A DNA stretch of 63,626 bases, the filler included, from Globobulimina sp. (Eukaryota): NCBI GenBank assembly GCA_003354225.1. It is 51 parts of 51 records of this genome, joined end to end, with 100 filler letters (N's around TTAATTAATTAA, not from the genome) between each part and the next. Parts side by side here need not be neighbours in the genome. Positions count along the whole stretch, not along the records: positions 42,494 to 43,642 come from PIVH01022312.1; 50 more parts are not named here. The stretch is one strand, 5' to 3'. The translations under genes and the position numbers were made by a program. This document shows positions 9,466 to 44,891 of this stretch, one piece after another (position 1 is the first letter of the stretch; each line of letters begins with the position of its first letter). The notes under the pieces are model-generated. The model ran no database searches. It had not been told where the DNA came from and was given only the letters and a program-made list of their open reading frames with translations.

Positions 9466-9533
9466 TCTCGACGCCAGGATTCGAACCTGGATCTTGCATA
9501 AAAACAATGCTCTGCCCATTGAGCTACGCGGCA
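9466..9533 (-). pseudogene. tRNA-like element or tRNA pseudogene
   Basis: GCCGCG-TAGCTCAATGGGCAGAGC-...-CCAGGTTCGAATCCTGG: intact D and T arms, degraded anticodon and acceptor stems. Confidence 0.7.
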
Positions 9534-11559: not shown

Positions 11560-11628
11560 GTGCACATAGCTCAAATGTAGAGCACTGGCGATCGCCAGGG
11601 ATACAGGTTTAAATCCTGTTGTTGCACT
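11560..11628 (+). pseudogene. tRNA-like element with palindromic anticodon arm
   Basis: GTGCACA-TAGCTCAAATGTAGAGCA-CTGGCGATCGCCAG-GGAT-ACAGGTTTAAATCCTGT-TGTTGCAC; acceptor, D and T stems can pair. Confidence 0.7.
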
Positions 11629-18750: not shown

Positions 18751-19508
18751 TCCACAGTGCCTGACTCCGATCCAACCCATCTAATCATATGCGGAGACAC
18801 GTGTTGTCCATTCATGACAGCTGCATTTGGTTGATACTGTGCCATTAATTGTTTCATTGTGTTTGCTAATATGGTTGTTCCGCCATCAAACCATATTTCT
18901 GAGAGCTCGCCATACATTGTCCACAATTCAGTAACTTGTTCAACACAGATTTGATTTATTTGCTCTTGTGTTACGTTTACCATTCCTGGCAATAATGTAG
19001 TACCAATTTTATAATCTCGATAATTTAAATAAACATTATTTGGTAAACTGTAATAAAATCCATAGCCCATACCGTATTTTGTTAATGTTTCCGCAAACTG
19101 TTTCAATATATCCTGTGTATAGGATGCATATTTGACTGAGTATGCATATGCTTGCGTTGTATTTGGTATCATTATTGATGTTGGCCATAGACAGAAGCCA
19201 CAAGTATGTTTTGCTGTCAATACAGCTGCTTTCGCGCCTAATGCTCCGTATGATTCTGCCCAATTTGTAACATTTAGCGCATACGGATTGAATACTTTAG
19301 GATTTGATGCATTCACACCGTTATTCCATGTGTTTGAATCACATGTAGCCGGTGCTGTGTATGTACCCATATTGAAATGGGTAAGTGCAACGATTTCATA
19401 TTGTTGATATCGTAATTGTGGTTCTGTTGGAACAGGTATTGTATTTTGCAATTGACTTTTACAACACATGGCAGTGGCAAACATAAATAATAAAAAAACT
19501 GACGCCAT
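18751..19508 (-). CDS. GH29 alpha-L-fucosidase with signal peptide; 3' partial
   Basis: P.P..QL.YQ, HF.M.T, FNP..L...W, VLTAKHxxGFCLWP, YYS, EIWFDG (nucleophile Asp), RWVG.E.G. Confidence 0.93.
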
Positions 19509-20387
19509 GATTTAATTGCTAAAAAACAGTGCAGGTGAAATTGCTATAATGAGACGGCTAAAACACAAATACATATATTGCACAAGTTATTACTTGTAAT
19601 GCAGAAAAGGAGATATACAGAAAGCGATGCTATGCCTGTAATAAAACGGATTAGAAGCCTTGTTTTATGCATCAAAACTAAAAGTAATGATAATTATTAA
19701 TATTTCGGTGGTATTTAAGGATATTGATCCGCCAAAAATTTCGTTTTTTTCCATTATTGTGTCCATAATACTTAATGTTTCTGATGCGAAATCTTGTCCT
19801 AATTTATTTCTAATGCTTGAAATATTGAACATTAGCACCATAACTGCATCCCATACATTCCATATCCCATCCTTCTGCAAATCCAGACTCCATTGCTTTT
19901 NNNNNNNNNNNNNNNNNNNNNNNNNNNNNNNNNNNNNNNNNNNNTTAATTAATTAANNNNNNNNNNNNNNNNNNNNNNNNNNNNNNNNNNNNNNNNNNNN
20001 ACCACTGTTTTACACTTTATGTCTGTATTGTTGTGATACTTTCTTTCATTTGCTTTGAAATTAAATAATTTACTGTACAATTTTAATATTTTTTTCTTTT
20101 TTGTTTTGTTCTATTATATTAATTTCATTCTTGTTTCTGAAACCTTTTTTTTATTGCTCTCTTTTTTTAATTCTGCTTTTTTAGCTTTTCATTTTTTTTT
20201 TGCAAATTAAAATATTTCTGTTTTGGTTGACATTTTCGATTTATAATCGCCAGTGAATTGACAAAGCTAACATTCCAAATGTTTATTGATTGTCATCTGT
20301 CAGAGATGACTTTTGATAGAACATAGGATCTTTTGATGTGCATTCATCGTTTTTGCCTTGTTACTAATAAATATATATAGCAGAATC

Positions 20388-41473: not shown

Positions 41474-42393
41474 ATGTCGTGGAAACCTCGTCAGCAAAAT
41501 AACAAACAATGGAGAAAATCACAGAACCATAATTATAATGATGCTGGCGATGAATATTGCAATTACAGACAAAATAAACCATATTACAGCAATAACAACA
41601 ATTATAGCAACAGAGATCCACAATCATATAACTCATATAACTCATATTCAAATTATGGATATAACTCAAATTATAACAGCAATAACAATTACAATAGATA
41701 CAATAACAAACAATATGAACAGTATCAAAATCAAGTTAACAATCAAGTGAACAAACCACGTTGGATCAATAAAAACAGCAAAGACGTTAAATATGTTAAA
41801 AATACTGGAAACTTCCAAATTGAAGACATTGCATTTCACGAATTAACAAACACATTACAATCAATTTGGGATAAATATTATCATAAAAACGAAGAATATA
41901 TTGAGAAAATAATATTTTTATGTGGCCCACCAGGCTGTGGAAAGACGAGTGTTTGTAATTATGTTGAAAAATATTATAATTTAAATAAATTAAATAATAA
42001 TCAATATATGATTGATGTATCCAACATATTAAGTGCTGTGATGAAAGCAAATAACAGAAAATTAATTATGTCAAAAGCATACGAATTATTATTTAAACAA
42101 ATATTCGATACAAAAAATAAAATATTAATTATTGATGGATTTTTAAGGAAAGAACAACATGTTTATGTCATAGATTTTCTTCAATTATATATGAAAAACA
42201 CAAGTTTTATATTTTTGGTTTTAAATGTGGATGAAAATACATCTGTTATAAGACAACTTGAAAGGGGTAAAAAATTGGTGAAACTATCAAATAGCAACCA
42301 AACTAATAATGACAATGAGGAAAAAGAAGGAAATAAAAATAAAAAGATAAGATTAAAAGATTCAGACTTATGTGAATATGCAGCAACGAAAAG
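41474..42393 (+). CDS. Adenylate/NMP kinase-like protein with N/Y/Q-rich N-terminal extension; 3' partial
   Basis: FLCGPPGCGKT P-loop, IIDGFLR, L.VDE..SV.RQL.RG. Confidence 0.8.
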
Positions 42394-42493: not shown

Positions 42494-42840
42494 GGAGCGA
42501 CCTCGACATTCAGACCAAGAACTGTATCATCACCATTTACAATTTGAAATGAACCTTCAACATACACTTTACTGTCGGTAAATTCATCACTGACAGCCGG
42601 TATTCTGAAGGTGATCGATTGATCGGTGCCCTGAAGTTGGGTCAGGGGTTGAAATGACTGCCATTGTTCCGATGTTATACTAAGTTGAACAGGGTCAAGA
42701 TCAAATAACTGGAATACACTTATTATATGACATTCAGTAACCACAAAACATCGATAAACAATTACCTCTAAACTTTGAACACCGGCGATGGGCTGAGTGG
42801 GCATAGTATTTTTCACAATTCTTTTCCTTTTGGGCGCCAT
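42494..42840 (-). CDS. Polinton/Maverick-type major capsid protein, N-terminus; probable intron at 42709-42765
   Basis: Spliced SLELFDLDPVQLSI..EQW..FQPL......SITFRIP..SDEF.D...YVEG.FQIV.GD..L parallels the Polinton MCP N-terminal pattern (ELDLF..P.TQ.SI...W....P......IEF.I.....Y.D....L....I...DG..L). Confidence 0.8.
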
Positions 42841-43349
42841 TATTTAAACAGAGTTTTTAACTGTTTCAAAATTTCGGTCTTGGTCAATTTTTTAGAATCT
42901 TTTTTACCAACTTTACGACCGCCTTTTGTAGGCTTTTTTTGTACTTTTTTGCCTTTGCCGACTTTACTTTTACGCTTACCAGCTGTTGCCCGTTTAAGAC
43001 CTGCTTTAGGTTTTCTTTTTTTCTGAATTCTACCTCCACCCCTTTTTGGTTTACGTGCCTTCTTTAGTACTCTTTTCTTAGTTTTCGCCTTTCCCCCTTT
43101 TTTTCCCTTTGAACGCTTTCTTTTTGGAGATGGTGAATCGTTGTAGAAATAAGTTTCTGGCCACTCGATAGTATCAAGACCACGAATGTTAGAGGGACCA
43201 CTTCCTCCAATTACACCAATGGGACCTTGTTGTCCACTTAGAGGAGTTTCGTATGTTACAGGTTTATATTTGGCTAGTAATTTAGACAATGAATTAATAA
43301 ATTTATTCTGTAGATTACTTGGTGCACCTTGACAATATGACATTATCAC
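42840..43349 (-). CDS. Lys/Arg-rich putative viral core (genome-condensing) protein
   Basis: Very basic C-terminal half; IGGSG site; lies between penton and MCP; its stop overlaps the MCP start (TAATG). Confidence 0.65.
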   Translation of the reverse strand: MIMSYCQGAPSNLQNKFINSLSKLLAKYKPVTYETPLSGQQGPIGVIGGSGPSNIRGLDTIEWPETYFYNDSPSPKRKRSKGKKGGKAKTKKRVLKKARKPKRGGGRIQKKRKPKAGLKRATAGKRKSKVGKGKKVQKKPTKGGRKVGKKDSKKLTKTEILKQLKTLFK

Positions 43350-43421
43350 ACAACAATGATTATCAAAACAGCGTGTTTATGACTAATCATGAATGATGAA
43401 ATAGACAATGTAAACAACACG

Positions 43422-43640
43422 TCATACTGGGAATACAAAACTGATATGCTTAAATTTCAACATGACATAGGCGCTTTCGTCATTGTCCATAAAATCTACA
43501 ACTTCTTTGAATTGAGAATCGAAAAACTTAAAACTCAAAGTATTGACGTAATTACTTACAACGGGCATATATACAAGCTCATTAAATTCGACAGTAATGC
43601 GCTTATTTAAGCTTAAATCCAACATTGGTACTGGTATCGT
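43422..43640 (-). CDS. Polinton-type minor capsid (penton) protein, C-terminus
   Basis: TIPV...ITVEF..LVYMPV....VNTLSF.F.D.....V.F......VMLKFK matches the penton C-terminal strand pattern. Confidence 0.72.
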   Translation of the reverse strand, partial: TIPVPMLDLSLNKRITVEFNELVYMPVVSNYVNTLSFKFFDSQFKEVVDFMDNDESAYVMLKFKHISFVFPV

Positions 43641-43742
43641 ACNNNNNNNNNNNNNNNNNNNNNNNNNNNNNNNNNNNNNNNNNNNNTTAATTAATTAANN
43701 NNNNNNNNNNNNNNNNNNNNNNNNNNNNNNNNNNNNNNNNNN

Positions 43743-44891
43743 TATTTTGGGACAATGTTTTCGTTGACATTGATGCCGCTATCTCTCACTCGTTGGGCCA
43801 ACTCATTTATATCTAGGAATATATTGTAATCGCAGGCACATTTTAATGGGTCGCACACTTTGCATTGACATTGGAATCGTTTCTCCGGATTAACACATTG
43901 TTTATTACAACATATACAAGGAATGTTGGGATTGTTATTGCCGTTACAATGGGACGGTTTGTTGCAGCAATCGTGATAATTATAGGCTTGTATCAGCATT
44001 GCGGATAAGGAGAGCGTCCATTGTTTGTCAGAATAGCTCATGAAATTGACAGATTGCGCGATATTGAAAGACTCATTTAAGCCGCAATGCAAACCGCCAG
44101 GCGGTGCGATGACAATATCTCCGGGTTTCTGCACTATAAAATATACAGTGATACCTAGACAGGCAAAAATGTACGGATCCATCACACAGTTTTTGTGTTG
44201 TAATGGAGTTAAACAATCGGGATAATAATATTTAAATTGTTTATGGAAATATCTCATCACTTTATTGTAATCTGAGGGGGAGATACAAAACCATGTCTTA
44301 TGCCCGCCGTATAACAAATGGTTCACAGCATGGAAATTCATATCCTCTGTGTATGTGTTTATAAATATAATGTATGTAACGGATTTGATAACTGTGACGT
44401 GAAAATATTCACAAACAGAAACAAACTGTTTCTGCCGAGAATAATCGTCAAGAGGAATATAAAAGACATACCATTATGCCACGGGAAAAAAGCATGCGTG
44501 TCACCCACATAAATATACGGTGTCTGTATGCCAACGGTGCATTCTTCTTCGTGTAAACAAGCAAACGGTCCATAATTCTTCAAATCCTCCGGTTTAAAGG
44601 GACTGTTCCCATCATAACAGGTAATATTATCATTGCATTCGATATGCCCATACTTAGCACTATTTTCCTCATATAAATATTTCATAAAAGTCAAATATTT
44701 CGCTTCAATGTTTTGTTCAATATACGGCGACTTGCCATCGACAGGCAACGCATCGATATATTGTTTAATATTGGCAGTGCTGTATGCTTTTCGCGTGCGT
44801 GTCATGCAACAAAATCCGCGCTAAAACTCTAACTCTTTACAATTAAAATATCGTTTTTGATTCTCAGTGCCGATGGTAAAGCCAGCATTGT
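43743..44891 (-). CDS. JmjC histone demethylase (KDM4/JMJD2-like), partial; intron at 44347-44471
   Basis: Spliced GIQTPYIYVG...FFPWHNEDMNF (HxE), K.W..I.P, QHK, VQKPGD.VI..PGG.H.G.N..FN.A.SVNF. Confidence 0.9.

Follow-up and report, generated by a model that had tools for sequence, protein, structure and literature searches.

The window analysed here is a stretch of 63,626 bases from the Globobulimina sp. assembly GCA_003354225.1. It is made of 51 contigs of 1149 to 1150 bp each, sorted by length and separated by spacers of the form N44-TTAATTAATTAA-N44. Since the window is an artificial joining of contigs, adjacency within it has no biological meaning, and no synteny can be deduced from neighbours. 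The subject of this analysis is one entire contig, at positions 42494-43642 (1149 bp, 36.8% GC), for which a virion module of the Polinton/Maverick type had been predicted, composed of a penton gene, a basic core protein gene and a major capsid protein (MCP) gene. Translation of the contig bore out three tightly packed minus-strand open reading frames (ORFs), as well as the predicted TAATG overlap at 42838-42842: the TAA of gene 2 and the ATG of gene 3 have A 42840 in common. Both contig ends fall within genes. The features are as follows.

43425..43640, minus strand: gene 1, candidate penton-like vertex protein P0003, C-terminal 72 codons, in a frame open to the contig end
43422-43424, minus strand: stop codon TGA of gene 1, read from the sequence
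43344..43421, minus strand: AT-rich spacer of 78 nt between genes 1 and 2, read from the sequence
42843..43343, minus strand: gene 2, protein P0001 of 167 amino acids, candidate DNA-condensing core protein, with its ATG at 43343
42840-42842, minus strand: stop codon TAA of gene 2, read from the sequence
ATG 42840-42838 to the contig end, minus strand: ORF of gene 3 as translated, protein P0002, 115 codons, N-terminal fragment
42766..42840, minus strand: exon 1 of gene 3, 25 codons, candidate MCP gene, read from the sequence
42709..42765, minus strand: putative intron of gene 3, 57 nt, phase 0, from its GTAATT...TTCCAG borders and from comparison with variant copies and relatives
42496..42708, minus strand: exon 2 of gene 3, 71 codons, cut by the contig end, read from the sequence

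The contig was found in a single public run, X1 (one sample, one study), at 0.59 of the sampled words. Among the Logan contigs of this run, 36 short pieces lie on the contig, ten of them with at least 99% identity, twelve with 95 to 99%, twelve with 90 to 95% and two with less than 90%; none of the 36 spans the whole contig. Two further runs of the same sample, X2 and X3, gave no pieces matching it, and there was no RNA dataset among the public runs containing the contig. Several diverged copies or variants are present within one sample, which explains why the assembly breaks off at 1.1 kb.

These variants are informative as to coding. From a total of 57 differences, 40, namely those listed, were classified, and the remaining 17 are outside all counts given here. 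Thirty of the listed differences are in the ORFs; 19 are synonymous and 11 are replacements, mostly conservative (V to I, for example), and no stop codon is found among the 30. The synonymous fraction expected for random single-base changes in the three ORFs is only 0.22 to 0.28 (binomial P from 1e-6 to 5e-5). This excess of synonymous changes, without stops, indicates that, as the copies diverged, the minus strand was constrained to code for protein, and the three genes are under purifying selection. Among the listed sites, gene 1 has 8 synonymous changes and 9 mostly conservative replacements, gene 2 has 6 and 1, respectively, and all 4 in exon 2 of gene 3 are synonymous. Both listed indels are located outside exons: a TT insertion behind 42754, in the putative intron, and a 4-nt deletion at 43389, in the spacer, where the variant copies also have one substitution at 43360. 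The tolerance of a frame-shifting indel fits with the spacer being non-coding DNA. We conclude that the three ORFs are real, virus-like, tightly packed genes.

Three of the X1 pieces leave the contig match for unlike sequence, two of them at 42950, within the lysine-rich part of gene 2, and one at 42795, in exon 1 of gene 3. It seems that the copies differ by hypervariability or recombination, at least in the lysine-rich tail of gene 2.

A phmmer search with P0002 against 1.84 billion cluster representatives returned seven proteins at E <= 1e-3. Five are fragments of 82 to 158 amino acids (four singletons and one two-member cluster), and the relatives of gene 3 come from contigs of ENA, NCBI or Logan. 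Exon 2 is 85% identical to P0004, and 36 to 52% identical to P0005, P0008, P0009 and P0010. Two giant repeat proteins, P0006 (3528 amino acids) and P0007 (5183 amino acids, 29 stretches), were rejected as chance matches, the alignments being short, repeated and low-scoring. Gene 3 starts with MAPKRKR, a basic motif that is nuclear-localisation-like, and a KRKR-type basic N-terminus is present in all three sequences that reach the N-terminus (P0002, P0009 and P0010).

Within gene 3, a block of 57 nt encodes residues 26-44 of P0002. It begins with GTAATT, ends with TTCCAG and has 30% GC; as it is in frame and without stop, gene callers read through it. The block is missing from the relative P0010. 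In P0009 (43% identity), an unconserved block of 24 residues is found at the intron position, starting with V (GTN) and ending with Q (CAG). In a variant copy, the block has 9 substitutions, compared to 30 listed in 1005 coding nt (Fisher P = 1e-4), and the 2-nt TT insertion inside it would break the coding frame. Judged by its borders and these comparisons, the GT...AG block behaves as a spliceosomal-type intron. Splicing is predicted to join ...GVQSLE to LFDLDP..., and the spliced product would then have about 96 N-terminal residues on the contig. The position of the intron is conserved between distant relatives, and its being common to proteins that are only 43% identical suggests that the intron is old.

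Language-model look-alikes were searched in the ESM Atlas with P0004, the longer relative of gene 3. Its neighbours are viral clusters, and the first matches score 0.96. Double-jelly-roll (DJR) capsid families of Pfam are found in 8 of the 30 neighbour clusters, on 10 to 17% of the members: PF16903 Capsid_N in six clusters (17% of members), PF21738 DJR-like_dom in one (10%) and PF21915 Sputnik_MCP_1st in one (15%).

The first ORF had been predicted as 67 amino acids long, from an ATG at 43625. It is a real minus-strand gene, but what the contig holds is a C-terminal fragment of 72 residues: a near full-length relative, P0012 (245 amino acids, on an NCBI contig), is 95% identical to P0003 over 57 amino acids and extends upstream to a start Met, so that the protein continues beyond the contig. 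The ESM Atlas neighbours of P0003 are mostly viral clusters among those listed, the first match being viral (score 0.98), and PF21507 V18-19, the Sputnik penton family, occurs in 2 of 30 neighbours, on 12% of the members. Four copies of P0012 were folded together with ESMFold2, and the mark for self-association was passed, with a score of 0.35 compared to 0.00 for the best of three controls; the runs had at least 43% of contacts in common and a partner predicted local distance difference test (pLDDT) of at least 73. Of the proteins used to calibrate this mark, 21 of 30 whose structures were solved as a pair of one chain attain it, compared to none of the 23 solved as single chains; among eukaryotic proteins without an older solved relative, only 1 of 7 does so, and the use of four copies differs from that calibration. 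The confident contacts place residues 110-112, 157-166 and 189-191 of one copy against residues 43-45, 79-89 and 202-204 of the next. P0012 is therefore predicted to associate with itself via two different faces, head-to-tail, as in ring-forming oligomers.

The product of gene 2 is in two parts. Residues 1-72 of P0001 are neutral (isoelectric point (pI) 6.0, net charge 0), and residues 73-167 comprise 36 K and 10 R, with a net charge of +44 and a pI of 12.0. The lysine-rich region has one weak tandem repeat (12 nt, 2.2 copies). By its composition, this basic tail has the appearance expected of a genome-condensing core protein, for which P0001 is a candidate. The original prediction of a basic core protein holds in so far as P0001 is strongly basic and core-protein-like; support for its statement that Polintons and adintoviruses are established to have such proteins was not found, as the word 'basic' is absent from PMC4028283 and PMC8502044, and none of the papers listed by a full-text search contains 'polinton'. 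In the parts of PMC4028283 and PMC8502044 cited here, a lysine-rich product of a gene lying between those for penton and MCP is not mentioned; the supplementary gene tables may well include one. The only potential adenain-type cleavage site of P0001, IGGS|G at residues 45-49, was discarded as not significant, since at least one site was present in 2271 of 5000 shuffled sequences.

According to Krupovic, Bamford & Koonin (2014, PMC4028283, in the parts cited here), Polintons have their penton gene upstream of that for the MCP, commonly separated from it by a single gene, and the candidate penton, one gene, candidate MCP order on the contig matches this. We consider it probable that the contig is a fragment of the virion-gene block of a Polinton/Maverick-like double-stranded DNA (dsDNA) virus of a eukaryote, with a DJR capsid. 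Several integrated copies of the element would exist, or else it would circulate as a diverse population. Its gene block would be transcribed in the nucleus, where the 57-nt intron would be removed, and the KRKR N-terminus of gene 3 would drive nuclear import of the capsid protein. Gene 1 would then encode a penton-like vertex capsomer of about 260 amino acids, forming pentamers at the five-fold vertices, and gene 3 the N-terminus of the MCP, both of these capsid proteins having jelly-roll folds. Gene 2 would encode a precursor, whose lysine-rich C-terminal 95 residues may bind to packaged dsDNA and neutralise it. Beyond the contig ends would lie the genes for replication and integration.

Gene order, the basic gene 2, the ESM Atlas look-alikes and the self-association of gene 1 all speak for the virion module that had been predicted; matches to capsid or penton profiles, or to a jelly-roll, were not obtained. 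This last point is one of several that weigh against a Polinton/Maverick-like capsid block, and we give them together. With Pfam, at E values up to 10, nothing was found for P0002, P0004, P0008, P0009 and P0012, and only unrelated sub-threshold matches for P0003, P0005 and P0010. In particular, DUF4106 (the Trichomonas Maverick MCP) was not matched by the N-terminal fragments P0002, P0004, P0005, P0008, P0009 and P0010, nor was Capsid_N (PF16903) by the gene 3 proteins in hmmscan at the same E value; the Sputnik families PF21915 (Sputnik_MCP) and PF21507 (V18-19) gave no hmmscan match for P0004, P0003 or P0012. P0001 had no match in Pfam (E up to 10), PHROGs, NCBIfam or PDB chains, and PHROGs and NCBIfam gave nothing useful for the contig proteins. 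Among PDB sequences, none matched P0012, and the matches of the gene 3 profile were dismissed as chance, being unrelated (best E 0.015, to a Gram-positive anchoring-domain protein). AlphaFold2 gave no usable model for P0004 (pLDDT 35.9, with 5 alignment rows) or for P0012 (pLDDT 29.7, with 2 rows), both models being poor because alignment depth is lacking, and a jelly-roll fold is demonstrated for neither candidate capsid protein. The ESM recognition values, 2081 and 1744, are below the tool's mark of 2300, a range where a high score is weak evidence, and the neighbours are to be taken as leads only; moreover, the first-ranked cluster for P0004 is labelled Uroviricota.

The search for relatives and for other viral genes adds to these points. 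Only one relative of gene 1 was found in the protein collections searched, and the relatives of genes 3 and 1 are on contigs of 467 to 1631 bp, none with genomic context. No relative was present in IMG/VR (queries P0004, P0012, P0010 and P0005, and alignment A3) or among JGI metagenome contigs, and no true relative among GTDB genome contigs, where a match in a metagenome-assembled genome of Bacteroidia (L001) proved to be a chance word match within a 257-amino-acid ORF for a cupin-type enzyme. Word-index searches among longer proteins yielded no longer relative of gene 3, and tblastn against annotated phage records had no match. The further hallmarks that had been hoped for in the rest of the assembly did not turn up in the window: pPolB, rve integrase, packaging ATPase and adenain are absent from the 1149-bp contig, and no such viral hallmark gene is found among the 63 ORFs of at least 100 amino acids on the other 50 contigs. 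Terminal inverted repeats are not seen either, as the 1149 bp do not reach the ends of the element. Membership of the Polintons/Mavericks is unproven, because the defining genes, except for two candidates, are off the contig and the folds are undemonstrated.

The same capsid module might belong to another group of eukaryotic DJR viruses, namely an unclassified polinton-like virus, an adenovirus-like 'meldvirus' or a relative of giant viruses. The ESM neighbours are indeed spread over Preplasmiviricota and Nucleocytoviricota, with Capsid_N as the commonest named family (6 of 30), the Polinton hallmark genes are missing as stated above, and MCP groups have no BLAST-detectable similarity to each other (Bellas et al. 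2023, PMC10120064, in the parts cited here). We nevertheless regard such an assignment as unlikely: Capsid_N, Sputnik_MCP, V18-19 and DUF4106 are all unmatched at E values as high as 10, a nuclear lifestyle rather than a cytoplasmic giant-virus factory is suggested by the intron and the KRKR N-terminus, and the spacing of penton, one gene and MCP is the pattern common in Polintons (PMC4028283, same parts). A non-viral origin appears very improbable. Such a multi-copy eukaryotic cluster could be another type of transposon, or could consist of a cellular chromatin-type basic protein with two beta-rich proteins; in its favour, no capsid family or fold is demonstrated, and lysine-rich tails are also found in cellular chromatin proteins. 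The one-base stop/start overlap and the 78-nt spacer are, however, untypical of cellular eukaryotic genes. The ESM Atlas neighbours of genes 1 and 3 are mainly or only viral, ring-like self-association is predicted for the product of gene 1, and relatives are so extremely few and scattered that a virus is a better fit than a conserved cellular gene.

The host is a separate matter. It could be a small animal or another minor eukaryote in the sample, with the element as its Maverick or adintovirus, and not the dominant AT-rich organism; this we hold to be possible but doubtful. The contig is without host flank and its neighbours in the window are unlinked contigs, it occurs in only one run of one sample, and the assembly is mixed, with a contig that is an outlier at 46.7% GC and with bacterial-type enzymes. 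Furthermore, classical Maverick-Polinton MCPs are nearly all metazoan, according to the same parts of PMC10120064. Against this, the GC content at third codon positions (GC3) of the three ORFs is 0.30, which is central among the AT-rich contigs (median 0.28 in the 31 other contigs with an ORF of at least 200 amino acids, rank 17 of 31), the higher overall GC of the contig being due to amino-acid composition. In addition, there is no near-identical protein from a named animal, the best relative being the 85% identical one, on an ENA metagenome contig. The GC3 value is what an element could show that resides in the AT-rich majority organism or is adapted to it, the host being unproven; a minor eukaryote of the sample, a small animal included, is a possible host. 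In their overall motifs, P0012 and the extended P0004 presumably resemble two protein families that adjoin each other in metazoan Mavericks, in line with the animal-Maverick-type capsid originally suggested; this is a lead only.

The Polinton/Maverick-like virion block may be compared with known systems. Beyond the gene order, the element resembles Polintons in being multi-copy or a diverged population and, presumably, in nuclear expression, given the intron and the KRKR motif; it differs in that its proteins have no sequence similarity to any curated capsid family. Adintoviruses encode Hexon, Penton and internal core proteins and are nuclear and animal-tropic (Starrett et al. 2021, PMC8502044; Buck et al. 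2024, 10.1101/2024.03.25.586562), and they are defined by Hexons mutually recognisable by BLASTp and by OTU-PolB, with a chromodomain integrase (10.1101/2024.03.25.586562), in the parts of these sources cited here. The adenovirus-like virion logic would be shared with the contig, whereas the phmmer search with P0002 gave no adintovirus Hexon relative, but only the five short fragments. P0001 is comparable to the adenovirus core proteins pVII, V and mu in being small, very basic and encoded among capsid genes, and maybe in being a precursor with a neutral N-terminal part; no PDB chain matches it in sequence.

Protist assemblies are rich in integrated polinton-like viruses, virophages and Mavericks, and the Trichomonas Maverick MCP corresponds to Pfam DUF4106 (PMC10120064, in the parts cited here). 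The contig is similar to these endogenous elements in that capsid genes are found on short contigs of draft assemblies and at high copy number. The screen of that paper, as described in the same parts, worked on the assumption that endogenous viruses 'do not contain introns' and retained predicted proteins 200 to 900 amino acids long, so that an intron-bearing MCP on 1-kb contigs would escape it. Introns have also been described in Maverick-polinton-like proviruses of dinoflagellates, where they are recent, transposon-derived introner insertions (preprint PMC11957031, in the part cited here). Introns within Maverick-like elements are thus common to both cases; unlike the dinoflagellate ones, the intron of the contig has a position shared with relatives 43% identical, which suggests age.

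Most likely, the contig is a sparsely sampled addition to the known Polinton/Maverick-like capsid-encoding elements. If so, it would add a very poorly sampled branch to these viruses, as two protein collections, one of 1.84 billion cluster representatives and one of 5.8 billion clusters, yielded only six fragmentary relatives. Such viruses are not usually described as having a spliceosomal intron at a conserved position of the capsid gene, or a strongly basic core-type protein whose gene separates those for penton and capsid, and both would be found here. Surveys that rely on prokaryotic gene finders, and take endogenous viruses to be free of introns, would be seen to have a blind spot. That protist assemblies contain integrated polinton-like viruses is already well established (PMC10120064, same parts), and a 1.1-kb fragment without replication genes, ends or host junction does not by itself change any current view; the contig is too short to settle the virus group or the host. 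A bolder version, which we judge somewhat improbable and put forward tentatively, would have the contig represent an uncatalogued nuclear Maverick-type lineage, multi-copy in an AT-rich, intron-poor microbial eukaryote that is not an animal, and equipped with an old MCP intron and a lysine-rich condensing protein.

The other 50 contigs mostly carry ordinary eukaryotic genes (alpha-kinase, cyclin, JmjC, IBR, Ras, UCH and NUC153) and a few bacterial-type enzymes. In the JmjC gene, a 125-nt intron (GTATGT...ACACAG, 44347-44471, minus strand) was found, the removal of which restores the WH-x-ED iron-binding motif; this shows the majority organism to be a eukaryote with spliceosomal introns. Frames of 369 to 383 codons without TAA or TAG are seen in many contigs. 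A ciliate-type code was considered and rejected, because ORFs reading through TAA or TAG had no domain support across the stops, and the fucosidase starts at a later ATG; the genetic code of the assembly is the standard one.

The contig at 22501-23650 is the outlier in composition (46.7% GC, GC3 0.62); a frame of 383 codons runs across all of it, without Pfam match, and it probably comes from an organism other than the AT-rich majority. Two tRNA genes were detected at the Rfam gathering score on two contigs, at 11561-11627 (plus strand) and 9472-9528 (minus strand). At 41474-42391 (plus strand), a protein has an Asn/Tyr-rich low-complexity N-terminus, with runs of N, Y and S, followed by a P-loop domain (GPPGCGKT), an architecture typical for very AT-rich eukaryotes. 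Bacterial-type enzymes on AT-rich contigs include GHL15 and alpha-L-fucosidase (1260-2399 and 18753-19511, both minus strand), the latter with an apparent hydrophobic, signal-peptide-like N-terminus after the ATG, and further bacterial-type proteins elsewhere in the window are a TupA-like ATP-grasp protein, a GFO/IDH/MocA protein and a PrsW protease. These enzymes are either genes laterally acquired by the eukaryote or part of bacterial contigs in the assembly.

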